Source: Anthoceros angustus (taxonomy: Eukaryota; Plantae; Anthocerotophyta). From it: a DNA stretch of 64,000 nucleotides. The number at the start of each line of letters is the position of its first letter. Position 1 is the first letter of the stretch. The notes beneath the pieces are model-generated. The model did no database searches. It saw nothing but the letters and a program-made list of their open reading frames with translations, and was not told where the DNA came from. Positions 21,901-55,806 of the stretch are shown piece after piece. The stretch is from contig MU008191.1 in NCBI GenBank assembly GCA_010909165.1, forward strand, positions 124,001 through 188,000, given 5' to 3'. The position numbers and the translations under genes are program-made.

Positions 21901-23664
21901 TTCTTGCGATGTCCTCCACGCTCACAGGCGTCCCTCTGCTCTCTCAGCCTCCTCAGTTTCCTGCCACTCCATTGGCGGGAAAGAGACCGGTCTTGATCTG
22001 GCTAGTTGGCGGGGCCGTCTTCCGCCTCTTCGCTTCCGCCTAGTCGTGAGTTCGGTTCTAGAGTTGTTGTGGGGCTCTTTGATCCTGCTGGCGTCGCGAC
22101 ATGACTCCCTTCTGCCAGCGCCTCCTCCTGCGTGGGTGCTCGTGAAGGACTAAGAAGAAGGCAGGAATGTCTTCCCACACTTCCACAGGTGGCGAGGGGT
22201 CCGTTCAAGCGTGTTGGTCAGATCCCTCCCAATCGTCCTCCTCCCGGACACTTGGTCTGGCCGGACACTCTGTGTTCTTCCTTCGCTTCTGCTTGGGCGA
22301 GTCCTTCATGGCGCCGCTCTTCTTCTCCTTCCTTGAGGAGGTTCATGTGCCCCACACATGGATAATAAGCAGCGACAAGCCGGGGTGGTCTCACTCCTCA
22401 ACTTCCGGGCCTCTGGTTGATCATGGCGAATAATTCTTTTCGATCGGCCCGCTTCCCCTCTGCGGGCGTGGAGGAACACCGACAAGTTGTCACCAGGTGG
22501 TCCCACCTTGGTGAGCATGTTCCGATGGGCGATGATCTTCGCCACTGCTCGCACCCTCATCTGGGAGGTCAGCATCGACCATCCGTTGGAGGATCATTGC
22601 GTTCCCGGTCTCAAGAGGGCGCTCGGCGCGTCCACCTTCCTTTCACCTTGAGGGCTTTGGAACCACTCCCCTACTTCCTCATTTGGGCGGTTGTACCGCC
22701 TCGGGACCTCCAGTCCACCTCACAGGTCCTCCACGGAGGTTCTTGGGCGGACCTCCTTGTTGCCTTAACATCTTGGGCATACTCCGGACTAGGGGCGTTA
22801 TCAGGTCGAGGCGGCTGGAAAATATCCAGTGCGGTCTTCCGAGCTCCTCCGCCTCGCCAAGGTCCGAAGTCGGGAGTGGCGCTTGGTGCGATATTCCGTT
22901 CCACGAGCACTGGGGCTCCCCACTGCCTTCTTGGGCCCCATTGCGCTCCTCTTGCTCTCATTGTTGGGGTTGAGGCTCAACAATCCTCATCCTTTTGTCG
23001 GCTGCGTCGGTCACTCCAACCACGAGGATGAGCGCGCTGCTGGGTGCTTGAGAGACAACGCCCGAGCGTGTCTCGGCGCGAGAGGCGCAACCGTCGCAGT
23101 CGCTTGGAAGAATGACCTTCGCTCGGGCATAGCGTCGAGTAACCGGTGGCGGGCGTCTCTTGCTGCCGTGGCTTCGAGGCCTACATGGCTTACTCTAGCC
23201 TTACTGTGCGCGTGCTCTAGCCTTCTGGCCCGCGTACTCTGTATCAGTGTATCGCCAACCGCGTACTCTGGCCTTGATGGTACGCCAGCGTACTCTGGCC
23301 CCTCGCTAGCACCACATACTCGGGCGTGAATGCCTATAACGACCAGCGGCAACCCCTCGTGTCCTGCATGCACATCACCGCCGGTCGTGGCTGCACAAAA
23401 TCGCTCCCGACTCCCAAGTTACTTTACTCGTACTTATCATGCCGGGGTGTAGTCCGGACTTACCGATGTGCTCCAGAGTGCGGTATCAGCTCGGAGTGTC
23501 GTCGTGGCCGCTCACGGAGTCGATGCGGAGTCGCTGCCTACTCCAGTGTAGTCAGGAGTACTCGATATATTTCTCCCTTTCCGCCTTATTTTCTACTCCA
23601 CACCTCTGAAAAAAAGCAAAACCCTAGCTCATTACCTACCAAAGGGAAGAGTCCATAGTCCACA
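18929..23664 (-). mobile_element. Solo giant LTR (~4.7 kb) of a diverged subfamily, with the internal ORF (ATG at 22941)
   Basis: Ends match the family termini. Encodes MGPKK..VERNIA..PDFGPW and RVRAVAKIIAHRNMLTKV plus a coiled coil. No pol adjacent. Flanks GGGAT/GACAT are not a clean TSD. Confidence 0.8.
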
Positions 23665-26231: not shown

Positions 26232-29200
26232 TGTGTTTGACTTGCGATGGCCGGTAGGCGCACAATCCCGTGTCGTTGTAGGAAGAAATCCGTTCCCAAG
26301 GGAATGATAGGCTCCGTTTGCGCGTTTCGTGATTCTTACCACTAGCTCGTTCGATCTCAACACATACTCTAACTACTCAGCGTTCACCGTCTGGGCCGGT
26401 ATGGCCAAGCGTTTAGGGACCCGTTCGGCGTCCGTATCGTTCACATTCGTCACTCACACTTCGGTCCTTTCCTCTCCCTCACGCTACACTCCTCGGTCTT
26501 AGAAAAAGCAGCGGGTTACAGTCCGGACCTCCTCGTCGTTCCGGGCCTCTCGTCCAGCTCTGCCGCCCTCCGGAGTTCCTCGGCTCACACGTTCAGTCCG
26601 TTCGGTCTTTGGGGGCGGCTCCGGGCACGGGTCACCCGATCACCCTGCACACACCACAACACGTTAGGTCGTCACGGGACCACGATCAATCTCCCGGGCG
26701 CCGTGCACCTTTCGGTGACTCGGGACTCACGTTAGCAGAAGACACACAAAGGTGCAAGAGCGGCATCAACACCAAGAAAGATGATTTATTGGGCCTTAGC
26801 CCTCTTATACTCGCCGGTGGTGCCTTTATTACACCTCTATTACGGTGAGGGCCCATTTCGGTGTGCCTAACCGCCGCCTACTACGCCTATTCCACCTATC
26901 GCCGTCGGTGGTGGGTGGATAGCCCCATTCCTTCTTGGCACGGCCCAAAGCCATGTGCGGCGCTCGGATGATCCGCGGACCCTTCCTCTTCATGCAGCCG
27001 GGCTGCGCCACCGGTGGCGGCACGTGATCACCAAGTCTTCCTCGTCCTCCCTCTTCTCTCTCTGGCGGGCCCTGGGGTGGGCCCTCAATGGATCTGCTGG
27101 GGTTGGTGGTGGCTCTCCCCACTCCCAGTTTGGACCTCGGGACCTGTCTCGACTCGAGTCCGGACCTCTAGGTCAGTCTTCCCTCTGAGGTCCGGTCTCC
27201 TGGGCCCGGCCTTCTTTGAGTCGGTCCTCGGGGCCGGACTTGCCTCAGGTCGGTCTTGGACCCAACCCTTCCACAGGGTCCGGACCTCGGGGTCGGATCG
27301 TCACTGAGTGGATCCCTAAGTCAGACTTCCTTGAGGCGGACCTCGGGATCGGCCTTTCCTCGAGTCAGGACAAAGTCAGGACCTCGAACTCTGGGCATGC
27401 CTCCCGGGCTGGTCAGGTTCATCCACTGAGCCCTCCCTTGGTTCCCGAATGCCCGGTTGCTTTCCTTCCTCTCAAGATCCTCCCTCGTCCTTCCATGCGA
27501 GGGTCTTAAGTCTTACCTCGGTGTGTGCCCTTCCTCCTCCGGTTCCTCCTGCTCTCCCTCGCTGCTGCCGTCGTCAAGCAGGCTCCTAGGACTCCAGCGG
27601 TTGTCTTGTCCCGGTCCGTCCTCTCGCTCCTCCTTCCATCCCTTGAGTCCACCCTCCACTGGGGTGGCGCGGGACCTCGAGCCTTGAGGAGCTCTGCGTG
27701 GTAGTAGGCGGTCAATCGACTTTGAATCGCCTCCTCCACATGAGCACACTCCCTCCTCAGGTGCTCCGGCAGCGGATCGCCCGGCCTGCTCCCGTCTCTG
27801 GCCAAGCTTACGGTATGGTGCGGACTCCCTTGAGGCCGTCAAGGCTGCCTCCGTTACCTCTTGCAACCTTGCTTTCGGCGTTCTCCTCCTCCGTCGTTGT
27901 TGCTCACTTGATTCTGCCATGGGTGAGCTCCCTTCTGCTTCCTGTAGCTTTTCCTCCAGTGCTTTCTTCCCCCCGTCTATTCTTTCCGGAGGTCCTCCAC
28001 TTCCTTCTCCAGGCGGGCGGTATCCCGTCAGGCTCCGCCACATCCTGCTGCAACCTTGCGGCCGAACTCCTTGCAGCCTTTTCTCCTCCGTCTTCAAGCG
28101 GGCTGGGCGTTCTACCTCTCGAAGTCTTGGATTCTCTCGTTGAGAACCCCTGCTCCGTGCATCTTGGGTTGCAACTCCAAGGTGTCCTTGTTCCTCCGGC
28201 TCCTGCCGCCCTTCTACCTCCTGCAGTGCACCACAGGGTCCCCAATCTCCCGGGTGCTGGCCTCAGCCTCCTCACGGCTCGTGCTTGCTCCGACCACTTG
28301 CTCGGCCAGTTGGCGGCTCTCTCGGCCGCCTCCCTCCACGGTTCGATCACGCCGATAGTGATCGCGATCGGCCGCCGTGGCCTCCGCCTCCTTGGCCACC
28401 TTCACACAGCCTCTCCGGCTTGGCTCTGGTCGGTCAGGCTGCCTCGCAGATCCGCGCCCGTTCGCTTGCGCCGGGCGTCCTCGCTTCTGCTGCGCTCGCC
28501 CCTCACTGCGGAGGTCCTCCGCGCTTGGGCCTCCTTGGCCAGCTTTTGTTCCTCGGTGAAGGAATTTGTCCGGTCCTTGCGGATGGACGGACCTCCCTCT
28601 CCGCCTCCGGCGTTTCCTTCCTCAATCGGCCGAGCTTGGCCTTCCTTCTCGCCTCTGGGCTCCCTCCAGCTGCTCACGGAGGCACCATGCGCCTCGGGTG
28701 GCTTCCACCTCACAGGTCTTCTCGGCCATCCCTTGAGACCCCAGGCATTCCATGGGTAGCAGGAACCACCGTGTTTCCTCCACGGCGGCTGATGAGGCTC
28801 CCACAAAGTCCGTGGCGGGGCCGGCATCTCCGTCCGTCAAGGACCTCCATACTGAGGAGCAAGTCTGGGTTCTCGGACAATCGGGACCCTTAGGTCACGA
28901 GTCTTGGCTCAGCTTCCCCTCCTTGGCCCTTTTGGCGCGAGCTCCTTCTCCGCCCTTTTCCTCCACAGGGCTCGGCGGAGGTGATGGAGTCAGGGACGCC
29001 CTTTGCCCCTTCACCGGCGGGACCCGGCTCTGGATCTGTGCTGTGTCCTCCTGCTCCTCCTTCGCCTCCTTCGCTTCCTCGCTTCTTGCCACTCGTCGGC
29101 GGGGGAGAATCAGCATGGCCCAGGGTGCAGCGTTGGTAGCCGTGGTCTTGCGTCTCTTGGCTCTCTCACAGTCGGCGGGCTCCTCGGGGAGTGATGGCAG

Positions 29201-30642
29201 TGGCGGGGCTGCAGGGTGTTCTTCTGCTTGGGCTTACGGTTGGGGCACGGAAGGAGGCGGGGAATTCCCATACTGGGGTGGTGAGGGGTCCGTTCAGCGT
29301 ATGGAGTCAGGAATCCTCAGTCGTCCTCCTCCGTCCGTTTGGTTTTGACGACCGGCCTCCTCCCTCGGCGCCCTTGCCGCTCCACTTGGCGGGGCCTCGG
29401 TCCTTTCCGGGCGCTCGCTCAAGCTCTCCTTCCTTGAGGAGCTCATGCCCCATACATGGATCGGTATGGGGCGGCCCAGATGGCGAGGCTTCTCGGTCAC
29501 TGAGCTTGCGAGCCTCACAGCTAAAGGCGAAGATAATCCTTCCCGTCGCCCTCTTCCCAGCGGCAGCGTGCGGGAACACCAATAGATTATCACCAAGGTG
29601 ATCCACCTTTTGGTAGGTTCGATGGACGATGATCCGGGCCACCGCCCACTCGGCATCAGGTCGGATATCGACCAACCGTTGGTGGTCGTTGCGTCGAGCC
29701 TTAGCATCACTGTGGTGGCCTATCTTCCCCTTCGCCTTGAGGGGCTCGGCACCACTCCCCTCTTCCTCCTTGGGCGGTTGTAGGCGCCTTGGGACCTCAA
29801 GGTCCATCGCCTTGGGTCCTCCCGGAGGTTCTTGGACCGCACCTCCTTGTTGCGCCCGGCATCTTGGGCAAACTCCGGACGGTGACCTTCAAATGTCGGA
29901 CCATTTGGAACACATCCAAATGCCACTCCTGCACCAATTCTCCCGCTGAGCGAGCCCAAAGTCCGGATAGCGCGGGTCACAATGTTGCGCTCCACAAGGT
30001 TCCATGGCTCCCAAACTTCCGGGCTTTTGGGTGCCATCGCCTTCTCCTCCTTGGTTGCTGGCCGCTTGCCGAGGCTGGCGTTGCGCCTTCGCGTTGCTCT
30101 CCGACCTCAGCGGTGAGCGCGGCAGGCGTCAGTGTCCACGAGATACGCGGAGCGGTTGCGGGCGCAGATCGTGTCTCGAGGTGGCGGCCTTCTTGACCAC
30201 GCCGGGAGTAACGGCGGGCGCCTCTTCATCGTGGCGGAGTGCGCATGGCTTACTCGCCTCGCTGCAGCGTGCACGGCCTTACTGCGCGTACTCGGCCTCG
30301 CGTGCTGCAGCGCGCGGCGGCGTGAATACATATAACGGCCTCTGGCAGGTTACGGTCTGACCACTGCATGCCGTCCTCCACTCGGGTCGTCACGTGGCGT
30401 CGCCTAGTCCGTCCTTCGCCCAACTTCTAAGTTACTTTCCACGTACTTATCACCGGTCACGGGTGGGTCGGACTTATCCCGTTACCGCGCGCCATCGTAG
30501 GTCTTGCGTTCCTCACTCCGGTCGAGTATACTCCGGTCGAGTCAGTGCTAAGTGCTTATTTCCTCCTTTTCGCCTCATTTTATCCTTGCTCACAAAAACA
30601 AAACCCTACCTAATTTCTAACCCCCGAAGTCCGTAGTCCACA
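26232..30642 (-). repeat. 3' LTR (4.4 kb) with internal ORF starting at ATG 30037
   Basis: Begins TGTGGAC on the minus strand right after the PPT. Colinear with 36025-42938. Confidence 0.85.
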
Positions 30643-30675
30643 TACTCCCTTCTCACTGTTGGCGTCTCGCCAACA

Positions 30676-33600
30676 CTAAGCGTGTACTTTTCACCGCCAC
30701 CCGTTCACCAGTGGGCGGTTCACCATCCAAGCGCCGTGAGCGGACCCATTGGGGTATACTGTACGACTTGGTAAGGCCCCATCCATCGTAGGTGGAGTTT
30801 ACAGGAAGTGCATATGTCGGTATCGTAAGGAGGCGGATCTCCCTCCTTCACATACTCCCGATTCTAAAACGCTATCATGCCACGGCTTGCGTTGATTACA
30901 TACCGATTGCATTATTATTGCGCCTCTTCCGGTCCTCCGTGTCTTGTACAAACCCTAGCAACCGCTCGGTTGGCTCTCTTCATCCGTTAAGCGCCTTTCC
31001 ATCATGACCGGAGTGTTGGCACCTCAAACTCGGCCGGCATAACGGGTGAGTGCCGCCGTCGAATAATACGGAGTTCGTTGCGTGGTTACCTTCTGCCGTT
31101 ACGAGCGCCCGCCGATGGCGACTTTGTATCGATCGTGCGCATAGTTAACCGTCGCTTATTGAGGATCGGCGAGATAAGTCCATTGGTCTTCTCCGTCGAT
31201 CCGTTGGCCTTGGATTGTAGGGGCGTTTACGATGTGTGATTGCGAAATAGTCCGTCATTGCGTTATCACATCATTGAGGAAATGGGTTCCCCTATCACCG
31301 GTAGCGGACACCCATACCTTGTGATGATGTTTTCGTGAGGAATTTGGCCACCGTGCTCATGTCCGTTCGTAGCGACCTTCAACCCACAGTGCGGTGGTCC
31401 GTTGCCACCAAGATGTACCGCTTACATGTGCACGGTGGTTGGTGTATGGGTCCAGTCGATGCCCATTTCTCAAAAGGCGCTAGTGCTAGTATGGGCACTA
31501 ACGGCCATTGAGTTGTGGCCGTCGGCTTCCCGATCCGCGGACAAGCATCACACTTCTTCACAAATTGGTGTGTTTCCCCATACATGGTGGGCCACAGTAC
31601 CCAGCCTCCAAGATTTTCTTGGTGGTGACCTGTGCTGCATAATGTCCACCACCTAGTCCTTCGTGCATCCCCTTTATTACCACCTCCGTTTCCGTCTGTT
31701 GGAGGTACCTTCGTTCCACCGTCCCTTAAAGATGCACGTTATCTGATAGGAAAGGCGGCGTAGTGCACAAAGGCTGCCTGGACCCGGTTCGATTCGTTGG
31801 GTAGCTCCATCTCCCATAGGTACTTCCAACTCCGCGTAAGAGGCCGCCCCTGCGTCCTCCTTCTGCCGTGGGTCCTGTTCACCCGACTTGGGTTTGTCGG
31901 TGTGCTCCTCTACCTCCTCCTCTATCGCGCCACCAATTCCTCATCCAAGGCGTCCTCTTGATCCTGCGGGGCAGGCTCGTTTTAATGGATAAGAAGTCGG
32001 GCGTTGGTGTTGCGTCCTTGCCTAGTCTCCACCTCAAATGTGAACTCCTGTAGCAGAATCCACCTCGCAATTCGTCAGGACAAGTCGCCTTGTTCACCAA
32101 ATGCTTGGTAGTGATCAACATAGAACACAAACTCATTGGGCGGAAGGTAGTGTCCGAATTTCTTCAGTATACCATACCCAATGCCTCTCGCTCCGTAGTA
32201 GTGTACCTCCGTTCGCGTCGTGGTGTCTTCAGCGTAGTAGATTGGGTGATCCCTCGTTTATCATCTTTTGGTGAGCACTACCCGATGGCGGTGACACATC
32301 CGTACACATGGAATCGCTTCCCCGGTCAGGTCCTTTGAGTCTTGGGGCCGACAGTGGTGCGGAGGTCTCTGAATCGCCTCCCTTTACGGCGTCGGTCCAT
32401 TCCTCCTCCTTCTGAGTAGCTCTTAGCACAGGCCCGCTTTGCAAAATCTTGTATGAAAGCGATAGTAACCCATGCCGGAATCCCGTAACTCCTTCAAGTT
32501 CGTTGGTGGGCTGCAGGGTGGATGACTTTCACCTTGTCTTGGTCCACCTCTATCCCTCTTACGACACTCGGTGCCCCAACAAGATTCCTCATCATGCAGT
32601 AGCATTTCTCGGGATGCGAGCCGTTGAGTCTCCTACATCGTTCCAAACACTTCCATAATGTCCGTGTTTGTCCTCCTCTCCGTGCACCAGTCCAAGAACA
32701 CCTCCATGAAGTCCCTCGGGAATTCCGGAAGACATTGGTCACCATCCGCATAAATGATCCGGGTGCTCTGTCATCCCGCACTCCGTTTGTAGGCAAGCGT
32801 CCCCACTCCGTGGTGAATGTTGTCTTATCGGTCAGGCTCCCTTAGGTATGGCGGTTGTGGCCGATGGCCGTCAAGAAGGAGTAGGTACTCCGGCCCACCT
32901 TGTCTATGTCGTCCACAAAGGGCATGGGAAATGGTCCTTTTAGTGGCGGCGTTAAGCTTTCTCCGATCTGGACCGAATCGCCCTGCTGCTTCTTGGCCCG
33001 ACCACAATGCGCCACCCACTCCTTTGTTCACGATTGGGAAGATGATGTCGCTTCGGATACTTATCCGGACTTCCTTGACCTTGGCGAGTGCTTGGGATTG
33101 ATTTATCTTGCCTAATCCGAGGCACGCTCACGGCTTCGATCTATCCGGTGTTAGCCTTGTTTGAATGCCTTTCATATCCGTGACCTTGAAAGCAAACACC
33201 TGAATTCCCCAACAAGCTGTGAGGTCTCGTTTAACCCTCGGCATGCCCTTGCGGAATTTGAGAATTTCACAGGCGAACCTCCACGTCTTCCACATCGTCG
33301 GGTTGAGTCTCCCTTTCTCTTTGCGCTCGTCCAGCCGTCCTCCATCGGGTTCATCTTCACGCATTCCCCACTCCGAAGAGCTCGTCCAGTGAAGCAGGTT
33401 ACTTCCTCGGTTCTACTCCCGTCTCTGCTGGACCCTCCTCTTGATTGCCTTCCCGGCTCTTGTTCCGCGAGTCCACCCTAAAACAATCGATGACCTCCTC
33501 GTCCACCTCGCTCCAAAGGCGTCCTCCGGTAATCCATCTCCTCCTCGACCACGTGATTTTGGGAAAGGGTAGTCCTCATTCGTATCCTCGCGTTCATCGT

Positions 33601-35985
33601 CCCATGTCTTGGTGAGGTGTACCCTACGTGGTCTTGTGGTTTCTCACCACGTGTATGTCCTCCAGTGTCGCTACCGTCCTTCCCTCACCTTGGATCCCAG
33701 TCCGGCTTGAAGTGTATCTCCTTCCGTCCAGTGTAGTTTTGTCGGCGAGGCCAGCCGCTAGCGGACCTCATACCCGGAGTCGGGGTCGATGACAAAATCT
33801 AATGTATAGGGGCTCCGCTATGGTGGCTTGGACTCGGGACAACTCCCTGGCGCTCGCGCATGTCGCCATCCACGAGGGTTTTGGTGGATGGCTCGAAGGT
33901 GGTGAACCCGGCCGTCTTGCGGTGGCCTCGGTGATGAGGTTCACTCGACCCGTGTCTAGAGGCGTTTTAATTACACCCGCAATTTCCACACTGCTGGCGC
34001 CCGGTCGTATGAGATCGACCCTTACCTCACGTTCTTGCCCTTAGGACCAAGGGTTCCGCGTGGTTGCGTTTCACGATGGCCTTCGGACTTCACAGCCGAT
34101 ACGGGTTGTCCTTTAACAAGCGCCTAAGGGACACCAAGTGTTGTTGGTCCATCATCAAGTCGGCCACCTTGAAAGGGCGGGTGGTTCTCTGCGTCCGCGT
34201 TCGCCTTGTCTCCTCCGGTTTGGCTCTCTGTGGTGGCGGACCACTTAGGTCTGTCGGAGTTCTTCTTGAAGCATCTCGGTCACTTCCGAACCACATCCGG
34301 TGGAAGCTGCGTTGCCGTGGGTGTCCGCTTCTCAGGAGACTCCGGTGGCTTTTGGGGGTTCTTCTCTGGCGGGCTGCCGGTTTAACTCGTCCTCTTTGGC
34401 GGGTTCGGCTTCCCAGTGTTCCGTCCTCCGTATCCGTGGGACTATCCTCATTTTCTTCCTCTTGGCTCCGTTCCTTCGCTCCTTTCGGCGACTCGGGTTG
34501 ACACTTCCGGTACCTCGGTCCGCCTTCTTCTCCTTGGCGAACTTGCCCGTACCACCTCGTTCGAGCTCCTCGGTGCCTCCTCCCCTCCATGATTGTCGTC
34601 TTCAATTTATGCAGGCGCCGCCTTAGGGAGGGCGTGGTCTTGGCTCCCGGCCGGGGTTGCGTGGCTGCCGTCTCGGCGAGATTCGGACCGAGTCTTGCGC
34701 ATGTGCCCTTTGCCCACAATCTCCACGGCCGTTCAAAGTCCGTTGTATGCGGTGGGGTATGGGCCAGGCGTTGGAGTAGTGTCGGGGTTCCCAGTTCCAA
34801 CGGACCGCCGCCCGAGAATTCTGGAGGGCTCCCATGCGGTTGCATCGGAGGTGATGGATGGACCTCCGGCGGGTACATCGTCACGGGATCGTGGTCCGGT
34901 TGTGCTTCTTGCACTTGGTCATCCTCACTTTGTTCCTCGGACTCTTCCCGTAGTCGTACTCCACAGTTCACGGGTGCGGAGGGCGGTTGGCCTTGAATGC
35001 CCATGTTGGTGTGACACGCAAATGAGTCGACGTGGTGGTCGCTCACTCTTTCACACGGTTGATCGTCAACTCCTCCACCCTCTTCATTACCGTTCTAGAT
35101 CTTCCCTCGGCCGCTACTTCCTTCAAAGGCTGGGTCGAAGGACCTCTGCCGGGCATCATGACCTCCTTCTTTTCCACCCTCGACTCACCTCTTCTTCTTT
35201 TTTGCGGTTCTTCTTCTTCCTCTGCCTCCTGGATTCTTCGAGTCCTCTTCCTCTTCCTCCAAGTGCCTCGGTCTCATCATCCTCCTCGTCAGGGTTCTTC
35301 ATCTTGATTCCGATTCTTCTTTTTCTTCTTTCCTCCTGGAGGTCCTCGGCCGTCGTTGGTGCATCGATTCTTCATAGTTCTCCGCCGCCCGCCTTGCTCA
35401 CATCTTTCTGCAAGCAACGGCATGTAGCCATTGGCTTGGATAAGCCATGCGAACCACGCACTTTGCATGGTAGTGTGGGTGGGGTGCCGTCCAGTAGAAC
35501 CGTTCGATGTCGATCCCAACTTCTCCGTCTTCCTCTTTGGGTTCTCGAGTTTGGACAAGATGTAGCCTTCTTGATCGATTCGCGGAATCTTTCTGAAGGC
35601 ATCCTTCAATCTTGAAGGTTGCGGGGGCGTTACGGGTGGTCGGTATTTCCTCCGATACCAGGCCTGTCCCGAGGACCCTTGGAGCAATTTGGATTAGCTG
35701 CGTCACCTTCTCCGTTGAAGTTTGCTCGGGACAAAATCCTCCAAAGGTTTGCATCTCTCTCCTTCTTACCCAAAGAGAGAAACTTGGTCGGTTGTTGCCA
35801 TCCGATCGCAAGGGGTGAGGAACCGCCCCCGCCACACCGCTGCTGCTTCCTCCTCGATCAAACAACTCCACCACTTACAGCGGTTGTGCCTCTCGAGCTC
35901 GTCGTCTCTCACGTACTGCGCTCGGGGCTCGGCGATCCACAACGTCCGACTCTCTTAATTCCTTAACTACCTCCGTCCTCCGCAT
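30676..35985 (-). pseudogene. gag-pol (gag, protease, RT, RNase H, integrase), heavily frameshifted
   Basis: LDTG (protease), RKLNAATK, LLDG, APGSFMRMVTNVF (RT), CDAC..PFEKW, YILVATD (integrase). Same family as 1-1504. Confidence 0.88.
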
Positions 35986-36006
35986 CCGCAGCTGGGCGAT
36001 TTCATT

Positions 36007-36021
36007 CCCGCAGCGGCGCCA
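36007..36021 (-). promoter_or_regulatory. Primer binding site, tRNA-Asp type
   Basis: TGGCGCCGCTGCGGG on the minus strand, 3 nt after the LTR end CCACA. Resembles the Athila PBS TGGCGCCGTTGCCGGG. Confidence 0.8.
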
Positions 36022-38142
36022 AAATGTGGCGCGACTTTGTGATGGCCAGCGGGCGCGCACAATCCGTGTCGTTGTAGGAAGAAGTCCGTTCCCAAAGGAA
36101 TGATAGGCTCCGTTTAGCGTTTGGTGATTCCGCACTTGCGCTCGTTCGGTCTCAACACATACTCTAACTACTCTAGCGTTCACCGTCTGAGCCGGTATGG
36201 CCAAGCGTTTGAGACCCGTTCGTCCGTGTCGTTCATTCGTCACTCACACTTCGGTCCTTTCCTCTCTCCCTCACGCTACACTCCTCGGTCTTAGAAAAGG
36301 CCGCGGGTTACCGTCGGACCTCCTCGTCGTTCCGCGGGCCTCTCGTCCGGGCTCTGCGCCCTCCGGAGTTCCTCGGCTCACACGTTCGGTCCGTTCGGTC
36401 TTTGGCGCGGCTCGGGAGCAGGTCACGGTCACTTCACACACACACACACGTTAGGTCGTCACGGGACCACATCAATCTCCCGGGTATCGTGCACCTTTCG
36501 GTGACTCGGGACTCACGTTAGCAAGAAGACACACAAAGGTGCAGAGCGGCATCAACACCAAGAGAAGATGATTTATTGGGCCTTAGCCCTCTTATACTAC
36601 GGAAGGTCGGCGCCTTTATTACACCTCTATTACGGTGAGGCCACTCGGTGTGCCTAACCAGCCGCCTACTACCACACCTATTCACCTATCGCGCCGTCGG
36701 TGGTGGGTGGATAGATTCCTTCTTGGCAGGTGGCCAAAGCCGAGCCACATCGGTGCGGCGCGCAATCGGATGATCGCGGTAGGACCCCTTCCTCTTCAGT
36801 GCATGGTGCGCCACCGGTGGCGGCAGTGATCCACCAAGTCTTCCTCGTCCTCCCTCTTCTCTCTGGCGGGCCCTGCGTGGGCCCTCAAGTTGGATCTGCT
36901 GGGGTTGGTGTTGGTGGCTCTCCCCACTCCCAGTTTGGACCTCGGGACCACTGTCCGACTCAGTCCGGACCTCTAGGTCAGTCTTCCCTCAGGTCCGGTC
37001 TCCTGGCCGGCCTTCTTTGGAGTCCGGTCCTCGGGGCCGGACTTGCCTCACAGGTCGGTCTTGGACCCAACCCTTCCACAGGGTCCGGACCTCGGGGTGG
37101 ACTCGTCACTGAGTCCGGATCCCTAAGTCCGGACTTCCTTGAGGCGGACCTCGGGGTCCGGCCTTTCCTCAGTCGGACAAAGTCAGGACCCTCGTGGGCA
37201 TGCCTCCTCACGGGCTGGTCAGGTTCATCCATGAGCCCTCCCTTGGTTCCCGAATGCCCGGTTGCCCCTTCCTCTCAAGATCCTCCCTCGTCCTTCCATG
37301 CGAGGGTCCGAGTCTTACCTCGGTGGCGCCTTCCTCCTCCGGTTCCTCCTGCTCCCTCGCTTCTGCTGCCGTCGTCAAGCAGGCGCTCCTAGGACTCCAG
37401 CGGTTGTCTTGTCCCGGGTCCGTCCTCTCGCTCCTCCTTCCATCCCTTGGAGTCCACCCTCCACCTGGTGGCGCGGGACCTCAGCCTTGAGGAGCTCTGC
37501 GTGGTAGTAGCGGTCGGAATCGACAGATCGCCTCCTCACATGAGCCGGGCACCGTACTCCCTCCTCAGGTGCTCGGCAGGCGGCGCCCTGGCCGTCTCCG
37601 TGGCCAAGCTTACGGTATGGTAGGCGGACTCCCTTGAGGCCGTCAAGGCTGCCTCAGTTACCTCTTGCAACCTTCCTTCGCTCGGCGTTCTCCTCCTCCG
37701 TCGTTGTTTGACTCACGATTTGCGGGCCATGGGTGAGCTCCTTACCTTCCTGGCCGGACGAGCAATGCCTTTCCTCCAGTGCTTTCTTCCTTCTATTCTT
37801 TCCGGAGGTCCTCCACTTCCTTCTCCGGGGCGGTATCCCGTCAGGCTCACGGCTTCCGCCACATCTGCTGCAACCTTGCGGCGTCGAACTCCTTGCCGCC
37901 TATTCTCCTCCGTCTTCAAGCGGGCTGGGCGTTCACCTCTCGCTCGAAGTCTTGGATTCTCGTTGAGAACCCCTGCGCTCCGTGCATCTTGGGTTGCAAC
38001 TCCAAGGTGTCCTTGTTGTCCTCCGGCTCCTGCCGCCCTTCTACCTCCTGCAGTGCACCACAGGGTCCCCAATCTCCCGGGTCTGGCCTCATGCCTCCTC
38101 CTCGGCTTGCTCCTTGCTCGGCCCAGTTGGCCGCGGCTCTCT

Positions 38143-39170
38143 GCCGCCTCCCTCCACGGTTCGATCACGCAGGTAGTGATCGCGATCGGCCGCCTCCCTC
38201 CACCGGTTCGATCACCGATGATCGCGATCGGCTCGCCGTGGCCTCCGCCTCCTTGGCCACCTTCACAGAGCCTCTCGACGGCTCTGGTCGTCAGGCTGCC
38301 TCCGCGAGATCCGCCCGTTCCGCTTGCGCGTCCTCGCTTCTGCTGCGCTCGCCCCTGCACTGCGAGGTCCTCCGCCGCTTGGGCCTCCTTGCACCGCCGC
38401 TTCTATTCTCCTCCGTCTTCAAGCGGGGGGCGTTCCACCTCGCTCGAAGTCTTGGATTCTCGTTGAGAACCCCACTGCTCCGTGCATCTTGGGTTGCAAC
38501 TCCAAGTGTCCTTCTGTTGTCCTCCGGCTCCACGCCCTTCTACCTCCTGGTGCACCACAGGGTCCCCAATCTCCCGGGTCTGGCCTCCAGCCTCCTCACG
38601 GCTCGGCCGTGCTTGCTCCTTGACCACTTGCTCGGCCTTGAGTTGGCTGGCTCTCGGCCGCCTCCCTCCACGGTTCGATCACGCAGGTAGTGATCGCGAT
38701 CGGCCGCCTCCCTCCACCGGTTCGATCACCGATGATCGCGATCGGCTCGCCGTGGCCTCCGCCTCCTTGGCCACCTTCACAGAGCCTCTCGACGGCTCTG
38801 GTCGTCAGGCTGCCTCCGCGAGATCCGCCCGTTCCGCTTGCGCGTCCTCGCTTCTGCTGCGCTCGCCCCTGCACTGCGAGGTCCTCCGCCGCTTGGGCCT
38901 CCTTGCACCGCCGCTTCTATTCTCCTCCGTCTTCAAGCGGGGGGCGTTCCACCTCGCTCGAAGTCTTGGATTCTCGTTGAGAACCCCACTGCTCCGTGCA
39001 TCTTGGGTTGCAACTCCAAGTGTCCTTCTGTTGTCCTCCGGCTCCACGCCCTTCTACCTCCTGGTGCACCACAGGGTCCCCAATCTCCCGGGTCTGGCCT
39101 CCAGCCTCCTCACGGCTCGGCCGTGCTTGCTCCTTGACCACTTGCTCGGCCTTGAGTTGGCTGGCTCTCG
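38143..39170. repeat. 514-bp essentially exact tandem duplication
   Basis: Identical ORFs offset by 514 nt (38291/38805, 38324/38838, 38403/38917). Confidence 0.92.
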
Positions 39171-42070
39171 GCCGCCTCCCTCCACCGGTTCGATCACCGA
39201 TGATCGCGATCGGCTCGCCGTGGCCTCCGCCTCCTTGGCCACCTTCACGAGCCTCTCGACTTGGCTCTGGTCGGTCGGCTGCCTCGATCCGCGCCCGTTC
39301 CGCTTCCGCCCGGGCGTCCTACGCTTCTGCTGCGCTCGCCCTCTGCTGAGGTCCTCCGCCGCTTGGGCCTCCTTGGCACCTTGTTCCTCGGTGAAGGAAT
39401 TTAGTCCGGTCCTTGCGGATGGACGGACCTCCCTCTCCGCCTCCCGTTTTCCTTCCTCAATCCTGAGAGCTTGGCCTTCCTTCTCGCCTCCAGGCCTCCA
39501 GCTGCTCTGGAGGAGTACCATGCGCTCGGGTGGCTTCCACCTCCACAGGCCTTCTCGGCCATCCCGCCAGAGCATACCGTCCATGGCGGTAGCAGGACCC
39601 GCCGTGTTTCCTTCCACGGCCCTGATGAGGCTCCCACAAAGTCCGTGGCGGGGCCGGCATCTCCGCGTCAGGACCTCCACCATGATCCGGAGCAAGTCGG
39701 TGGGTTCTCGGACAATCGGGACCCTTAGGTCACGAGTCTTGGCTCGGGCTTCCCCTCCTTGGCCCTTTTGCGCGAGCTCCTTCTCGCCCTTTTCCTCCAC
39801 GGGGCTCGGCGGAGGTGATGGAGTCAGAGCCTTTGCCCCTTCACTGTCGGCGGCAGGACCCGGCTGATCTTGCCGGTGTCCTCCACTCCTGGCGGCGTCC
39901 TTTACGCCCTCCTTGCTTCCTCGCTTCTTGCCACTCCGTCGGCGGGGAAGAATCTTGCACCGGCCCAGGGGTGCAGCGTTGGTAGCCGTGGTCTTGCGTC
40001 TCTTGGCTCTCTCACAGTCCGGGGCTCCTCGGTAGGAGTGATGGCGGTGGCGGGGCTGGGGTCAGGCTTCTGTGGGTGCTCGGTTGGGGCACGGAAGGAG
40101 GAGGCGGGTGCTTCCCATACTTCCACAGGTGGTGAGGGGTCCGTTCAGGGCGTATGGGTCAGGAATCCTCGATCGTCCTCCTCCGAGTCCGTTTGGTTTT
40201 TCGGCGACCGGCCTCCTCCTCCGGCCCTTGCCGCTCCACTTCGGAGCCTCGGTCCTTTCCGGGCGCTCGCTCAAGCTCTCCTTCCTTGAGCTCAAATGCC
40301 CCCATACATGGATCGGTATGGGGCGGCCCAGAATGGCGAGGCTTCTCGGTCCGAGCTTGCGAGCCTCTGGCTAAACCGGGCGAAGATAATCCTTCCCAGT
40401 CCGCCCTCTTCCCAGCTGCGCGTGCGGGAACACCAATAGATTATCACCAAGGTGATCCACCTTGGTAGTAGGTTCGATGGACGATGATCCGGGCCACCGC
40501 CCGACTCATTGTCAGCAGTCGGATATCGACCAACCGTTGGTGGTCCGTTGCGTCGAGCCTTAGCATCGGCTCTTTGGCCTATCTTCCCTTCGCCTTGAGG
40601 GGCTCGGCACCACTCCCCTCTTCCTCCTTGGGCGGTTGTAGGCCGCCTCCCTCCACCGGTTCGATCACGGGATAGTGATCGCGATCGGCCGTGGCCTCGC
40701 CTCCTTGGCCACCTTCACGAGCCTCTCGGCTCTGGTCGTCAGCCTCGCGAGATCCGCCCGTTCGCGCCGGGCGTCCTCGCTTCCTGCTGCGCTCGCCCTC
40801 CTGCGGAGGTCCTCGCCGCCCGGGCCTCCTTGGCCCCTGTTCCTCCGGTGAAGGAATTTAGTCCGGTCCTTGCGGATGGACGGACCTCCCTCTCGCCTCC
40901 GGCGTTTTCCCTCAATCGGAGCTTGCCTTCCTTCGCCTCCACAGGCTCCCTCCAGCTCAAGGAGTACCATGCGCCTCGGGTGGCTTCCTCCAGGTCTTCG
41001 GCCATCCATGCGGACCCCGAGCATACCGTCCATGGCGGTGGCAGGACCGCCGTGTTTCTCCACGGCGGCTGCTGTGAGGCTCCCACAAAGTCCGTGGCGG
41101 GCATCTCACGGTCCGTCAAGGACCTCCATACCCTTGATCAGCAAGTCGGTGGGTTCTCCGGACAATCGGGACCCTTAGGTCACGAGTCTTGGCTCGGAGC
41201 TTCCCCTCCTTGGCCCTTTTGGCGCGAGCTCCTTCTCGCCCTTTTCCTCACAGGGCTCGGCGGAGGTGATGGAGTCAGGAGCACGCCCTTTGCCCCTTCA
41301 CATCGGCGGCAGGACCGGCTCTGGATGCGTGCTGCGGTGTCCTCCTGCTCCACAGGCGTCCCTTTACGCCCTCCTTGCTTCCTCACTTCTTGCCACTCCG
41401 TCGGCGGGGAAGAATCTTGTGCCAGGGGTGCGTTGGTAGCCGTGGTCTTGCGTCTCTTGGCTCTCTCACAGTCGGCGGGGCTCCTCGGGGAGTGATGGCG
41501 TGGCCTGGGGTCAGGCTTCTGTGGGCCCTGGTTGGGGCACGAGGAGGAGGCGGGTGCTTCCACAGGTGGTGAGGGGTCCGTTCAGGGCGTATGGAGTCAG
41601 GAATCCTCGGTCGTCCTCCTCCGAGTCCGTTTGGTTTTCGGACGCCTCCTCCCTCGGCGCCCTTGCCGCTCCACTTCGGCGGGGCCTCGGTCCTTTCCGG
41701 GCGCTCGCTCAAGCTCTCCTTCCTTGAGGAGCTCGAAATGCCCCCATACATGGATCGGTATGGGGCGGCCCAGATGGCGCTTCTCGGTCTGAGCTTGCGA
41801 GCCTCTGGCTAAGCGGCGAAGATAATCCTTCCCAGTCGCCCTCTTCCCAGCTGCGGTGCGGGAACACCAATAGATTATCACCAAGGTGATCCACCTTGGT
41901 GAGTAGGTTCGATGGACAATGATCCGGGCCACCGCCTACTCGGTCAGCAGGTCGGATATCGACCAACGTTGGTGGTCGTTGCGTCGAGCCTTAGCGCCGC
42001 TTTGGCTGGCCTATCTTCCCTTCGCCTTGAGGGGCTCGGCACTCCCCTCTTCCTCCTTGGGCGGTTGTAG
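39171..42070. repeat. ~1.45-kb imperfect tandem duplication (39171-40640 and 40641-42070)
   Basis: Same landmark sequences repeated, e.g. GATTATCACCAAGGTGATCCACC at about 40439 and 41873. Confidence 0.85.
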
Positions 42071-42938
42071 GCGCCTCGGGACCTCAAGGTCCATCGCCTT
42101 GGGTCCTCCGGAGGTTCTTGGACCGCACCTCCTTATTGACCGCCCGGCATCTTGGGCAAACTCCGGACGGTGACATCAAATGTCGGACCATTTGGAACAC
42201 ATCCAAATGCCACTCCTGCACCAATTCTCCCGCTTCACGGGCGAGCCCAAAGTCCGGATAGCGCGGGTCACAATGTTGCGCTCCACAAGGTTCCATGGCT
42301 CCCAAACTTCGCGGGCTTTTGGGTGCCATCGCCTTCTCCTCCTTGGTTCATGGCGCTTGTGAGGCTAGCGGCACGTTGCGCCTTCTTGGCGCGTTGGCTC
42401 CGACCTCAGCGGTGAGCGCGCGAGCGTCGTGTCCACGAGATACCGCGGAGCGGTTGCGGGCGCGAGATCGCGTGTCTCGGTGCCGCGACCTTCTTCCGCG
42501 ACCACGCCTTGGGAGTAACGGCGGGCGCCTCTTCCACATCATGGCCGTGCGCGCACTGGCCCTGCTGCCGCGTACTCCTCGCGCGTACTGCGGCCTTCGC
42601 GCGCGTGCCACGGCCCCTCGCGCGGCGACGTGAATACTGCTATAACGGCCTCACGGCAAGGTTACGGTCGACCCTGCATGCCGTCCTCCACTCGGTCGTC
42701 ACGTGGCGTCGCCTGGTCAGTCCTTACGCCCAACTTCTAAGTTACTTTCCTGGCGTACTTATCACCTGGTCACAGTGGGTCGGACTTACCCGTTGCCGTC
42801 GCACGTTCCTCACTCCGGTCGGTATACTCCAGTGCCGTCCGAGTGCTAACCGTGCTTATTTCCTCCTTTTTCGCCTCATTTTATCCTTCGCTCCACAAAA
42901 AAACAAAATCCTACCTAATTTTCTTGAAGTCAGTCCAC

Positions 42939-44050
42939 TGAACATCTGAGATGGGCGCATGGCATCATGGCAATTTAATTAGCTTGGATGTGCAATGGCA
43001 CAAGAAGTACAGGATGTCATAAAGCTTTTCCTGCGGGTTGGTAGACATGTTGGACCCTTACCTCACCAGGAATTCTCCACGAAAACCTCTAGATATATAC
43101 CTTATTGTGGCTTTTGTTTTATGTAGGCTTGCAAAAGGACAATCCCCGGAAGATGTGGCAGACATCTACAGAGTAGAAGTTTCTAGTGTTGTTCATGATA
43201 CGCAACTGGTTACTAGAATTTTGGCTCATCCTCGTGGCCTTTGTGCTAGATTCATCAAGTGGCCATCATTAGAAAGACAGGCTGCAGTCTCTAGAGAATT
43301 CAGGGCGATCACTGGATTTCCAAACGCAATGGGGTCGATAGATGGTTGCCTTATAAAATTGTGGCAAAAGCCAGCGAGACAACACACACCTGCAGCTTAG
43401 TGGTGCAGACATGACATTTTCAACATTATACTGCAAGGAGTTGTAGATGTAGATGAGTTTTTCATTGATGTGTCTTGCAGGATGCCAGTTGGTCATCATG
43501 ATTTTGCAATGTTACAAGACAGGAGAATTTGGAAAAATTACTCCACAAGACTATCATGGATGGTCCTTGCATGAAATGATTCTTCAAGATCCTCCAGGTC
43601 TCAGACTTCAACGAAGAGGTCCTTCTAGGGTACACTTACCTCCGTATCTGCTAGGAGATAGTGCCTACCTCTTATTCCCCTTCCATGTGAAACCATTCAA
43701 TCGTGGAAGTGGGCTTGACAAAAGTGTGGAGCAAGAGCTTGAGCAGGGGCCGTATTACAGTGGAGAACGCATTTGCCAAGCTGAAAAACAGTTGGAGAAT
43801 CCTCAAGAACATGAACATGAAGTTGGATCATTGTAGCCAAACGGTTATTGCATGCTGTGCTCTGACAAACTATTGTCGAACGTGCGGCGATCCACCTCCA
43901 GACAACTTGCAAGGAGAAAGATATCCATGGCAGCTCAAAGGTATGGGAATACTTGGCGAAGCAGAGAGAATTTTGAACAGGAGAGCAAAGCAGCAAAGAG
44001 AAAACTTGTTCTTATTTTGGAAGCAAGAAGGGAACTTGCAGGCTCTATAG
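42939..44050 (+). pseudogene. PIF/Harbinger DDE transposase, 3' part, disrupted
   Basis: GFPNAMGSIDGCLI, LQGVVD, YLLGDSAY, RITVENAFAKLKNSWRIL, IACCALTNYC. Confidence 0.92.
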
Positions 44051-49242: not shown

Positions 49243-52200
49243 TGTGGCGGGACTTTCGCTGATGGCCAGCCGGGCGCGCACAATCCCGTGTCGTTGTAGT
49301 AAGGAGTCCACTCCCAAGAGAATGATGGGCTCCGTTTGCCTCGTTTCAATCATTTCGTCCCTCACGTAGTATCGGTTCAGTCTCAATACACCTATTCATC
49401 GTTTTAAACCTAACTACCCACAATGCTCACCGACAGGCCCGGTGCGGCCAAACGTTTAAGGACCCGTTCGCGTCCGTGTCGTTCAAGTTCGTCACTCAAC
49501 CCTCTAGTCCGTTCCTCTTACCACTCTCACTACTCTCACCATCCTTGGGAAAAGCGCGGGTGGCTACGCGGTCCGGACCTCCTCCGTAGCTCTGCCGGGC
49601 CTCTCCGTCCGGGCTCTGCCGCCCGGAGTTCCTCCGGCTCCACACGTTCCGGCCGTCCAGCGGCACCCTGGATGAGCAAGGGTCCCTAGGCGCTATTCCA
49701 CATACACCACCACACGTTAGGGTCTCACCAAGACCTTGATCTCTCTCCTCCGCTTTCGATGACTCAGGACTCGCGTTAACAAGAAGGCACCCAAGAGCCT
49801 GCCAGAAGACGCGGCATCAACACCAAGAGAAAGATACTTTACTCAGGGCAGCCTCAGCCCTCTTATACTACGCCGAAGGTCGGCACCTTTATTACACCTC
49901 TATTCCGGATGAGGGCTGGCTCGGTCGCCCTAATCGGCCGCCTATTCTCCTATTCCTCCTATCTCCGCCGTCGGTGGTGGTGCAGGATAGATTCTCTTGC
50001 ATGGCCCAAGGCAGCAGCACGCATCGGGATCCGCGGGACCCTACCTCCCCGGTGCAGGCTGCGCTACGGGCGGGCGGCGACAGCGGTCACCACTAAGTCC
50101 TCCTCCCCCTCCTCTCTTATCTCTCTGGCGGGCCCCTGCACAGCGGGCCCTCCAAGGGATGGATCTGCCGGGGCTGGTGATCGGTGGCTCTCCCCCACTC
50201 CCTGAGTCTGGACCTCAGGACCCCGTCTCGACTTCGGAGTCCGGACTTCTAGGTCCGGCCTTCCCTGTCACGACATAGGGTTAGGGTAACCATGGTTAAG
50301 AGGTATAGTTAGGTTAAAAGGTATAGTTAGGGTTAGGGTAACCATGAGTGTAAAGGCTACTTAAGCCACAATCAGTCGTAATGAAGGCAGAGCTAGTTGT
50401 GTGCTTCCACATTGCTCGATCGCTGACCAAGTTCATGGTACAACCTGTATCGAGCGGTCGGATTGTTGGTGGGGATGGCGGCGATTTGAATCGGTTGCAT
50501 CGCAACTATCGAGCTACGCGATTCGATCGACATGAGGAGGTGGTAGCACGATTTCAAGCGAGCGACCGGTTCCGACGGCCGAGGGTGAGATACGTGGCCG
50601 CCCTTGGGGTACACTTTGTACAGGCGAAGGGCAGCATGTGGGTATTTTACTAGGCGGAGTTGTGTAGAGAGGCTTTATCGGTACCTGGAAGGACCTGCTT
50701 GATTTGGAGCGAGCGAGCAAGGGCTGGATTTGCCTCACGGCGAGATCGAGGGAGAGCTCTGCCAGCGAAGGTTTTGCGAGGTACTGGGGCCACAATGTGG
50801 ATTTCGAGGGGAGACTACCGCCACCATCTTGCCGGAATAACTGCCAATCCCCCACACCGTCATAGGCGGTCGAGGGCGTGACCCAGGGCCCTTGTGCTCT
50901 ATACCGCCCAACGGCAGCAAGGGTGGACACGCCACGACAGGCGACGGAGGATCTAACGACCGGCTCACCGAGGAGGCAACGGGCGAATAAGAGGCGATCA
51001 ACTCGCGGGGCTTGAGGTCATGCCAAGGGCACTACAGATCATGTACTAACCTTGGTGTAAGCTGGACATGAAATCCCGGGCCGCAGCGAGGGCTCTGTGG
51101 TGTCTGGCAAGGTGATTCCCAGGCCAGTCCGCGGCCTTGTGGTACTTGCACCAAGATTGCTGTGCAAAGACTGTTCTTGTGTGTAAATTGAGTCGAAATC
51201 CCGGGCTGAAGCGACAGCCCTGTGGCTCACAGGGAGGCTGTTCCCAGGCCAGCCGCGGCCTTGTGGTGCCTCCGTCGAGGGTTTTGCTCGATGAGTCGCA
51301 AAGTGTGAAGCTTCTCGACGATCCCGGCGAAGATGATCCTTCCGATGCCCCTCCTTCCTCTCTGCAGGCATGCGGAACCCCAGAATTGTCACCAAGGTGA
51401 TCTACCTTGGTGAGCATGTTCCGATGGACAATGATCCTAGCCATTGCTCTCACCCTCACATCGGCAAACTGACATCAACCGTTGGGTTGGGTTGCAGCCC
51501 CTGCTTTATGACGCGGCCTTTGCCGCCTCATTTTTCCTGCGGCCTTGGGGGTTCCAACCACGCCCCCAATTTCCTCCGGACGGGCCAGTCACCCCTCGGG
51601 ACCTCCACGGTCCACCTCCTAGGGTCCTCTCAAGGCTCTTAGATCGAACCTCCTGGCTGGCGCCAACATCTTCCGGCGTACTCCCGGACGGGCGGCTGTT
51701 GTCGAAGGTCATGACACGGAAAACGTCCAGGTGCCACTCCTTGACCAGCTCCCCCGCCTCCTCCAGCCACGGCCCGAAGTCCGGGTAGCGCTTGGTGACG
51801 ATGTTGCGCTCCACCAAGCACCATGGCTCACAAACCTCCGCCGCCTTCTTGGGTCCCATCCTCCCGCTCCCTCTGTCCCGCTGCTGAGGCGTGAAGCTCC
51901 ACAATCTTTCGCTCCTTAGTCGCGGTGTCAGTTGCTTCACTCGCCAATTCGAATGCGCGAAGGATCTTTGGAGCAATAAAAAGACAACGCCAGAGCCGGG
52001 TGTAGCGCGAGAATGCGAAACTTCGCCGAAGTTGTTTGGAAGAATGACCTCCGCCTCACTTCTCTCCGCGGAAGTAACCGGCGGGGCGGCTCTTTCTTGT
52101 CCGTGGCGCCGAGCTGCATGGCCCGCTTACTTCCGCCCACTCGGCCTTACTGCCGCGCGCTGAGCGTGAATACCTGCATGCGGCCAGCAGCATGCTACTA

Positions 52201-52509
52201 CGGCTGCTGCGCATGCCGTCTTCCATTCGAGGCCATCCACGTGGTGCGCCTGTCTAACTCACGCCCCAACTTCTAAATTACCTTACTAGGCGCTTATCCC
52301 ATTCGACCGGAGGGTCCGGACTTATCCGATACTCGGTCGTGGTCCGGGGTCCCGGAGTGCGGGGTCCGTTACCGAGTCAGTGCACTCGGATTGTGCTCGG
52401 TGCCGTCGTCTTATTCCTCCTTTTCCGTCTCATTTTACACTCCATTCCTACGAAAAAAAAAAAACAAACCCCGCTTATTTCCCAACCCAAGGGGAGTCCG
52501 TTGTCCACA
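49243..52509 (-). mobile_element. Solo giant LTR, third subfamily, with perfect TSD CAGAG; internally rearranged; ORF ATG at 51859
   Basis: CAGAG|TGTGGCGG...GTCCACA|CAGAG. Encodes MGPKKAAEVCEPWCLVERNIVTKRYPDFGPW..KEWHLDVF and RVRAMARIIVHRNMLTKVDHLGDN. Confidence 0.92.
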
Positions 52510-55702: not shown

Positions 55703-55806
55703 GCTAGTCTAAGTAGGACCACAGTTGCTACGCAGGTCTTCTGCGTGATATGGGGTATACCCGACAAGCCAATCAAGACTTCGTTGCCCGATTGTTGTCG
55801 ACGTTA

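Follow-up and report, generated by a model that had tools for sequence, protein, structure and literature searches.

Evidence for a decayed orphan gene within the long terminal repeats of an ancient Ty3/gypsy family of Anthoceros angustus

Genes that lie in, or overlap with, the unique 3' region (U3) of the long terminal repeat (LTR) are familiar from vertebrate retroviruses, namely sag of the mouse mammary tumour virus (MMTV), which encodes a membrane protein, and nef of the lentiviruses. Here we describe an open reading frame (ORF) located within the LTR of a Ty3/gypsy retrotransposon family in a stretch of 64,000 nucleotides of the Anthoceros angustus genome (assembly GCA_010909165.1, contig MU008191.1, positions 124,001 to 188,000), to which we refer as the window and the positions of which are used throughout. 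In the accessible text of a survey of plant LTR retrotransposons, additional ORFs (aORFs) are listed in the internal region only (PMC7264820). The ORFs of the Retand/Tat elements are described as antisense, lying between pol and the 3' LTR and often carrying a TRP28 (Transposase_28) domain (PMC11963269, available portion), and ORF0 of the rice elements Retrosat2, RIRE3 and RIRE8 as standing upstream of gag-pol, likewise in the internal region (PMC3485330, available portion). Revolver of the Triticeae is a transposon-like unit of about 3 kb that contains the gene of a 139-amino-acid protein, and its ends are homologous to the approximately 5-kb LTRs of large retrotransposon derivatives (LARDs); according to the available part of the Revolver paper of 2010, no LTR encoding a gene had been identified until then (PMC2851119).

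Our reading of the Anthoceros locus, to which we assign a probability of roughly 0.7, is that the window contains the decayed 5' part of an orphan gene, that this gene is located in the LTR, likely in the U3, of an old Ty3/gypsy family, and that it was maintained by purifying selection during the divergence of three subfamilies. Copy E of the repeat carries an ATG-started ORF of 117 sense codons (51859-51509, minus strand), and tblastn with its translation detected four further copies in the window (expectation values: C, 5e-19; B, 6e-10; A, 3e-9; D, 2e-8). The coding-like features of the five copies are the following.

51506..51859, minus strand: copy E, the ATG-started ORF of 117 codons with its stop, N-terminal part of the LTR-borne gene
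51370..51462, minus strand: copy E, C-terminal block RVRAMARIIVHRNMLTKVDHLGDN, past a stop and in a frame that differs from that of the 117-codon ORF
22486..22941, minus strand: copy D, homologous domain with its ATG at 22941, containing frameshifts and stops
29568..30037, minus strand: copy B, broken homologous domain with its ATG at 30037, lesions in common with A and C
41856..42329, minus strand: copy C, broken homologous domain with its ATG at 42329
40366-40536, minus strand: duplicated fragment of the C-terminal half of the copy C domain, detected by tblastn
2141..2579, plus strand: copy A, broken homologous domain, detected by tblastn

The ATG is conserved in all five copies. Pairwise identities among A, B and C amount to 80-87%, and D as well as E reaches 62-72% with the remaining copies; these levels divide the set into A/B/C, D and E, and the three subfamilies proposed by the first-pass annotation could be confirmed in this way. 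The peptide blocks MGPK, EPWxLVERNI..PDFGPW, KEWHLDVF, EVRSKxL and GPWRSRG are all situated inside the 117-codon ORF of E. The blocks which that annotation had reported as persistent were indeed present on the minus strand, and in five copies of three subfamilies; the final block, however, is out of frame in E. A sequence of 15 bases, AACATSSTCACCAAG, occurs twice in the E domain (51791-51805 and 51406-51420, minus strand), once in each of two conserved blocks, and again in D, C and A at their C-terminal block, which makes six matches against 0.43 expected. The likeness of LVERNIVTK.. to IVHRNMLTK.. hints at an internal repeat, and as DNA it is exact in E alone; the recurrence of AACATSSTCACCAAG could reflect an internal repeat, a DNA motif or chance.

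Selection on the ORF was assessed on a MAFFT nucleotide alignment of the natural copies, taken column by column, on which the proportions of synonymous (pS) and nonsynonymous (pN) differences were counted according to Nei and Gojobori in every frame and compared by the Fisher test. In the frame of the 117-codon ORF synonymous differences were in clear excess between E and D (pS 0.57, pN 0.30, p 3.7e-5), E and C (pS 0.54, pN 0.25, p 7e-6) and D and C (pS 0.62, pN 0.31, p 3.9e-6), three comparisons which have branches in common and are therefore not independent. In the two shifted sense frames pS was about equal to pN (p 0.2-1); two of the three antisense frames showed nothing, and the antisense frame that shares the third codon position gave a weaker echo (p 0.002-0.03). 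The excess was strongest at the beginning of the ORF, with a pooled pS of 0.81 and pN of 0.20 for codons 1-40, followed by 0.54 and 0.28 for codons 41-75. It was demonstrated in this manner that the N-terminal part of about 75 codons (51859-51635, minus strand, in E) was under purifying selection while the three subfamilies diverged. Within the young A/B/C group there was no codon-position pattern, which agrees with what decay after insertion should leave.

The repeat units that carry the ORF, together with the sequences adjoining them, are located as follows.

49243..52509, minus strand: copy E, a solo LTR of 3,267 bp, starting with TGTGGAC and ending with GCCACA
18929..23664, minus strand: copy D, an LTR of about 4.7 kb, second subfamily
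26232..30642, minus strand: copy B, a 3' LTR of about 4.4 kb, situated after the polypurine tract GAGAAGGGAG (30654-30645) and after integrase and RNase H remnants
36025..42944, minus strand: copy C, a probable 5' LTR of 6.9 kb, about 85% identical to B
30643..36024, minus strand: degenerate internal region of 5.4 kb leading from C to B, with the primer-binding-site-like sequence TGGCGCCGCTG starting at 36022
1538..3258, plus strand: copy A, start of a 3' LTR, B-like up to about 3258
1526-1535, plus strand: polypurine tract of copy A, with pol remnants further upstream

The lengths of the LTRs span 3.3-6.9 kb, that of C being inflated by internal tandem duplications. According to blastn and the alignments, the units have a common 5' end, TGTGGAC(T/A)A(C/T)GGACT, at 1538, 23664, 30642 and 52509 (degenerate at 42944), as well as a common 3' end, ..GCCACA, so that TG..CA termini are found in all copies. 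The sequences upstream of C, D and E bear no relation to each other, and these three copies begin at the base that matches the sequence immediately following the polypurine tract of A and B, where GAGAAGGGAG stands 2 bp before the LTR. The five bases CTCTG stand on both sides of copy E (52514-52510 and 49242-49238) as a perfect target-site duplication. As for the internal region, a Pfam match to RT_RNaseH (3-260, expectation value 1.6e-13) lies upstream of A, and weak Pfam matches to RNase H (0.006) and Integrase_H2C2 (0.005-0.07) precede B in the expected order; reverse transcriptase-like motifs were recognized by eye in the C-B internal region when it was read through with X at stops, a domain that Pfam did not report there. 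TGGCGCCGCTG (TGGCGCC..) begins 2 bp past C and resembles a primer-binding site by its appearance, without a tRNA match. Because this sequence, then the 5.4-kb internal region and then B follow upon C, and because C and B are about 85% identical, the two probably represent both LTRs of a single old element. We conclude that the unit is a genuine LTR of the Ty3/gypsy type; the label given to it by the first-pass annotation is borne out by the shared ends, the TG..CA termini and the duplication around E, and the putative polypurine tract and the pol remnants next to A and B fit with it.

It should be considered whether the unit might be no LTR at all, the ORF then being a conventional accessory ORF in sense orientation, placed after pol and before a 3' LTR of only about 1 kb, with C, D and E as 5'-truncated elements. 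That position would be the usual one for the accessory ORFs of plants, as far as the accessible part of the survey describes them (PMC7264820). Furthermore, neither D (3 of 5 flank positions identical) nor the C-B pair (2 of 5) showed a target-site duplication, the primer-site-like sequence was matched to no tRNA, and no tRNA gene was found in the 64-kb window. Three independent copies (C, D and E) start, however, at the same base as the sequence downstream of the polypurine tract of A and B, the perfect duplication lies exactly at the ends of E, and C is followed by TGG.., by an internal region with pol and then by B; we consider this explanation the least probable of all those weighed here, and return to the gene-bearing LTR.

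In copies A, B, D and E the ATG stands 596-723 bp downstream of the LTR start, and the orientation of the ORF is that of pol. The best conserved DNA of the LTR is its last kilobase, which is 70-72% identical between subfamilies (blastn), and this part contains a TATA-like box.

49857..49869, minus strand: copy E, TATA-like box AGTATAAGAGGGC, at a distance of 626 bp from the LTR 3' end

In E this box is preceded by GTGTAATAAAG at 49887-49897 (minus strand), and AGTATAAGAGGGC recurs exactly in four of the five copies (E, D, B and C), about 570-650 bp before the LTR 3' end and downstream of the ORF. Judged from the motif, the surroundings of AGTATAAGAGGGC are likely the U3/R boundary region, and since the ATG lies upstream of the conserved box the gene probably sits in the U3.

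Some additional features of the repeats may be mentioned here. The internal tandem duplications of C occupy 37895-39380 and 38917-42077 (minus strand) and consist of units of about 510 bp and of a 1.7-kb duplication; the latter copies the C-terminal half of the domain (40366-40536). Immediately before the conserved 3' kilobase, the LTR of D contains a 33/66-bp tandem array at 19924-20087 (about 5 and 2.3 copies). A pair of 1.1-kb direct repeats, 97.7% identical (4245-5326 and 7698-8792, plus strand), begins inside copy A, and a piece resembling the 3' end of the LTR at 5476-6140 is 66-73% identical to B and C, that is, as distant from them as E; its origin may be a further copy or a nested element of younger age.

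A second coding-like block was recognized about 1.1 kb downstream of the N-terminal part in the long copies D, B and C.

21380..21830, minus strand: copy D, second coding-like block, WRSLTD..ATDFLGAS..VEETRF, followed by the helix

Synonymous differences exceeded the nonsynonymous ones in this block too, between D and B (pS 0.54, pN 0.26, p 4.8e-6) and between D and C (p 0.0035), with control frames not significant, the p-values being optimistic because the block was picked after D had been scanned in sliding windows against B and C. The second, helix-containing block was probably also under purifying selection. Outside the two blocks a sliding dN/dS (nonsynonymous to synonymous rate ratio) analysis on the global D-B alignment was too noisy. 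AlphaFold2 predicted a single helix of 60 residues (residues 35-94; predicted local distance difference test score, pLDDT, 90-98) for the stop-free piece 21273-21608 (minus strand) of D, and the stop-free pieces of D between both blocks were rich either in P, S and T (26-34%) or in charged residues. No hydrophobic (transmembrane) segment was present in the five pieces without stops that were inspected, which represent part of the ORF (Kyte-Doolittle mean over 19 residues at most 0.76). Copy E lacks the whole middle part, linker as well as second block, and no copy joins the N-terminal module and the helix block in one ORF. The layout of some 600 amino acids suggested by the first-pass annotation can therefore be retained in part: a P/S/T- or charge-rich stretch, a second block and a 60-residue helix are there in D, B and C, without a continuous ORF and not in E, and a domain-linker-helix arrangement is plausible for the long subfamilies as far as the predicted model goes. 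As to the long coiled coil, what is predicted is one helix of 60 residues, and a coiled coil of several hundred residues would go beyond this prediction.

Apart from the undetected target duplications of D and of the C-B pair, the manner in which the second block was chosen and the want of a copy with both modules in one frame, several further observations weigh against our reading. The U3 placement rests on a TATA-like motif. The selection signal is confined: codons 76-117 have none, and the C-terminal block has a weak one in its own frame (pS 0.40, pN 0.27, p 0.006) and scored slightly higher by tblastn in antisense (52.8 bits) than in sense (44.3 bits), all six frames yielding tblastn matches wherever the DNA is conserved. 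The earlier claim of protein-level selection accordingly stands for codons 1-75, where pS exceeds pN in a frame-specific way, and not for codons 76-117, and only weakly for the C-terminal block. The DNA of the domain is 67-69% identical between subfamilies (blastn), a level that does not exceed that of the non-coding 3' kilobase; the LTR DNA had been called strongly diverged, but the domain can still be aligned by blastn. Finally, the sense strand of the LTR is T-poor (13-19% T), so that stops are rare and long stop-free frames come cheaply. Since the domain DNA is alignable, the antisense scores are similar and the strand is T-poor, the persistence of peptide blocks alone does not prove coding.

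The same observations suit the view that there never was a gene and that the peptide blocks are a by-product of conservation at the DNA level, namely of LTR sequence that acts in cis (enhancer or promoter modules, for instance), on a strand poor in T and in stops. The higher identity of the non-coding 3' kilobase and the alike sense and antisense scores of the C-terminal block would be natural in that case, and so would the broken state of every copy, the lack of homologues and the low confidence of the structural model described below. The synonymous excess, however, was found in exactly the frame of the conserved ATG, with p of about 1e-5 in three comparisons, and was weaker or missing in the other five frames, and a three-base periodicity is not what a cis-acting DNA element produces; thus we hold this view to be unlikely and prefer a protein-coding gene.

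The condition of the copies is the next point to be weighed. None of the five in the window is intact, and only E keeps the 117 codons. Across these codons A, B, C and D each have 10-14 frame-breaking indel events relative to E, counts that depend in part on the alignment. The comparison between subfamilies that the first-pass annotation had proposed gave a synonymous excess (pS 0.54-0.62 against pN 0.25-0.31), together with 0 intact copies of 5. Copies A, B and C have at least three frame-breaking indels and one stop in common at the same places, and because of these common lesions their ancestor must already have been broken. Either the A/B/C lineage spread on without the gene, or its copies are segmental duplications; in view of these lesions the gene may have been dispensable in cis late in the history of the family. 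All five copies are now pseudogenes, and the case is weakened by the decay of every copy in the window.

Additionally, no relative of the LTR-borne ORF came up in any protein, Pfam or PDB search. Pfam assigned no family to the 117-amino-acid ORF of E (expectation values up to 10), nor to the LTR-borne ORF among the 134 ORFs of at least 110 amino acids on both strands of the window or in the X-read-through sense frames of the LTRs of D, B and E (up to 1), scans in which the frameshifts of the copies reduce the sensitivity. Transposase_28, ATHILA ORF-1 and PMD had no Pfam match in the scans of the LTR-borne ORFs and frames. Word-based protein searches returned nothing for the E ORF (longer and near length classes) or for the 166-amino-acid ORF of B (longer class). 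The best ESM Atlas score was 0.83 (recognition 2120), under the useful range, and a PDB search by sequence with the 117-amino-acid ORF gave 0 matches. The AlphaFold2 model of this ORF was of low confidence (pLDDT 52). Two phmmer matches among 1.84 billion protein representatives, to long repetitive proteins with 18 and 8 short stretches, were judged spurious, and PDB matches of the helix piece with expectation values of 0.1-0.8 were taken as chance. With no Pfam family in the sense frames, no PDB relative and none among the 1.84 billion representatives, the description of the domain as unrecognised in the first-pass annotation holds.

One could also think of a host gene fragment that was captured by the ancestral element and carried along without use to it, since such captures are documented for plant LTR retrotransposons (PMC7264820, accessible part) and the ORF was dispensable in the A/B/C lineage. 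Against this, the ORF was kept in three subfamilies that are 30-38% diverged and was under purifying selection after their split, whereas captured genes occur as one or few copies according to the available text of the same survey (PMC7264820); moreover, neither the 1.84 billion protein representatives nor the word-based searches contained a host-like relative. We regard a passively carried host fragment as very unlikely, only slightly ahead of the truncated elements without a gene-bearing LTR.

If the ORF was a gene of the element, the protein borne by the LTR likely served the element's own replication. Being in the U3, the gene would be copied to both ends of the element at each reverse transcription and would be transcribed, from the 3' LTR, as the 3'-terminal part of the element RNA, and its translation would depend on a subgenomic or spliced message or on an own promoter in the first approximately 650 bp of the LTR. 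The predicted protein would consist of a small helical N-terminal module and a Gly/Arg-rich basic tract, to which the long forms would add a low-complexity linker and an oligomerising helix. With these properties we infer that a soluble cofactor binding RNA or a host factor fits better than an env-like protein. It is conceivable, as a tentative suggestion only, that it was an element-specific cofactor which bound the element RNA or a host factor and acted in trans, by analogy with Rev-type or CERV-type factors (CERV is reportedly a factor of the C. elegans element Cer1). A function as silencing suppressor appears improbable, and less likely than the cofactor; the anti-silencing or targeting role considered in the first-pass annotation is a conjecture. 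Speculatively, and with a low probability, the LTR might be a gene-carrying module with the promoter in its first approximately 650 bp, and every LTR, the solo ones included, a potential expression unit for a trans-acting factor in control of the replication of the family or of its silencing by the host. Were this true, it would constitute a plant counterpart of the retroviral U3 genes in a place where the annotation of plant retrotransposons never seeks genes.

The remainder of the window provides the genomic setting of these repeats. Two full-length U5 spliceosomal small nuclear RNA (snRNA) genes, at 53466-53580 and 55569-55681 (both minus strand; Rfam 78.6 and 86.5 bits), lie within a repeat pair of about 255 bp that is 80% identical (53351-53602 and 55446-55703). 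A gene of a pentatricopeptide repeat (PPR) protein of 1,084 amino acids with E motif and internally repeated DNA occupies 56145-59399 (minus strand; Pfam PPR 1.5e-122), and a PPR fragment is found at 15556-16038 (minus strand); both are indicative of a land-plant genome. An apparently intron-free deoxyhypusine synthase ORF extends from 62889 to 63998 (plus strand; Pfam DS 1e-119) and past the end of the window, with an inverted, 93.6% identical fragment in two frames 45 kb off (17285-17933, minus strand). Fragments of an ammonium transporter gene are present in two frames at 9918-12006 (minus strand; Pfam Ammonium_transp 2e-21 and 2e-7) and are overlapped by a long ORF of the opposite strand, as is typical for GC-rich DNA. 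Remnants of a PIF/Harbinger-type DNA transposon lie just upstream of the LTR of C (43691-44047, plus strand, and 44514-44843, minus strand; Pfam DDE_Tnp_4 1e-8 and a Myb/SANT-like domain 2e-11), and upstream of copy D there is an ORF of 188 amino acids (24097-24666, plus strand) without an assigned family. A match to the group II catalytic intron model (18527-18600, plus strand, 52.4 bits), about 330 bp beyond the 3' end of the LTR of D, may be a piece of organelle-derived DNA.

Comparing the locus with the known systems, the sense aORFs of plants are similar in being an extra sense ORF downstream of pol that is kept across copies and subfamilies and has no outside relatives, as the accessible part of the survey presents them; the Anthoceros ORF differs from them by its position beyond the polypurine tract and inside the LTR, hence at both ends of the element and in solo LTRs (PMC7264820). 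From env-like aORFs it is set apart by the absence of a hydrophobic segment in the tested pieces. The Retand/Tat elements have in common with this family a non-chromovirus-style Ty3/gypsy character and a long stretch after pol with tandem repeats and an accessory ORF, but the Anthoceros ORF is in sense orientation, lies inside the LTR and has no TRP28 match in Pfam; the loose resemblance to Tat/Retand accessory ORFs seen in the first-pass annotation is therefore positional only, with strand, site and domain all different from those in the available description (PMC11963269). ORF0 likewise belongs to Ty3/gypsy elements with LTRs of more than 3 kb and is described, in the portion of the paper at hand, as an orphan, fast-evolving extra ORF under some constraint; the ORF studied here is in the LTR, and the two sequences are unrelated, with no match in the searches (PMC3485330). 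The Revolver unit contains introns, ends in inverted terminal repeats and is not presented, in the available text, as the terminal repeat of a pol-bearing element (PMC2851119). The gene-bearing unit of Anthoceros, in contrast, is demonstrably an LTR, near to pol, a polypurine tract and a primer-site-like sequence. Among plants, Revolver is the nearest precedent.

In the literature covered by our incomplete search, no gene within a plant LTR is described. As an extra ORF, the decayed accessory gene belongs to a known kind, its placement in the LTR is unusual, and such genes have possibly been overlooked in general, LTRs being usually masked and annotated as non-coding control DNA. It should be emphasized that each transposition duplicates a gene that lies past the polypurine tract, and that solo LTRs retain such a gene, by which its modes of expression, dosage and loss are altered. 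The closest functional analogy would be with the retroviral U3 genes: sag and nef are also ORFs in the U3, they are expressed from the 3' LTR through a subgenomic RNA, and reverse transcription places a copy of them at either end; the Anthoceros gene may have worked in a comparable way, although those are genes of vertebrate retroviruses with unrelated proteins, no hydrophobic segment was seen here, and the U3 placement of the plant gene is indicated by a TATA-like box only.

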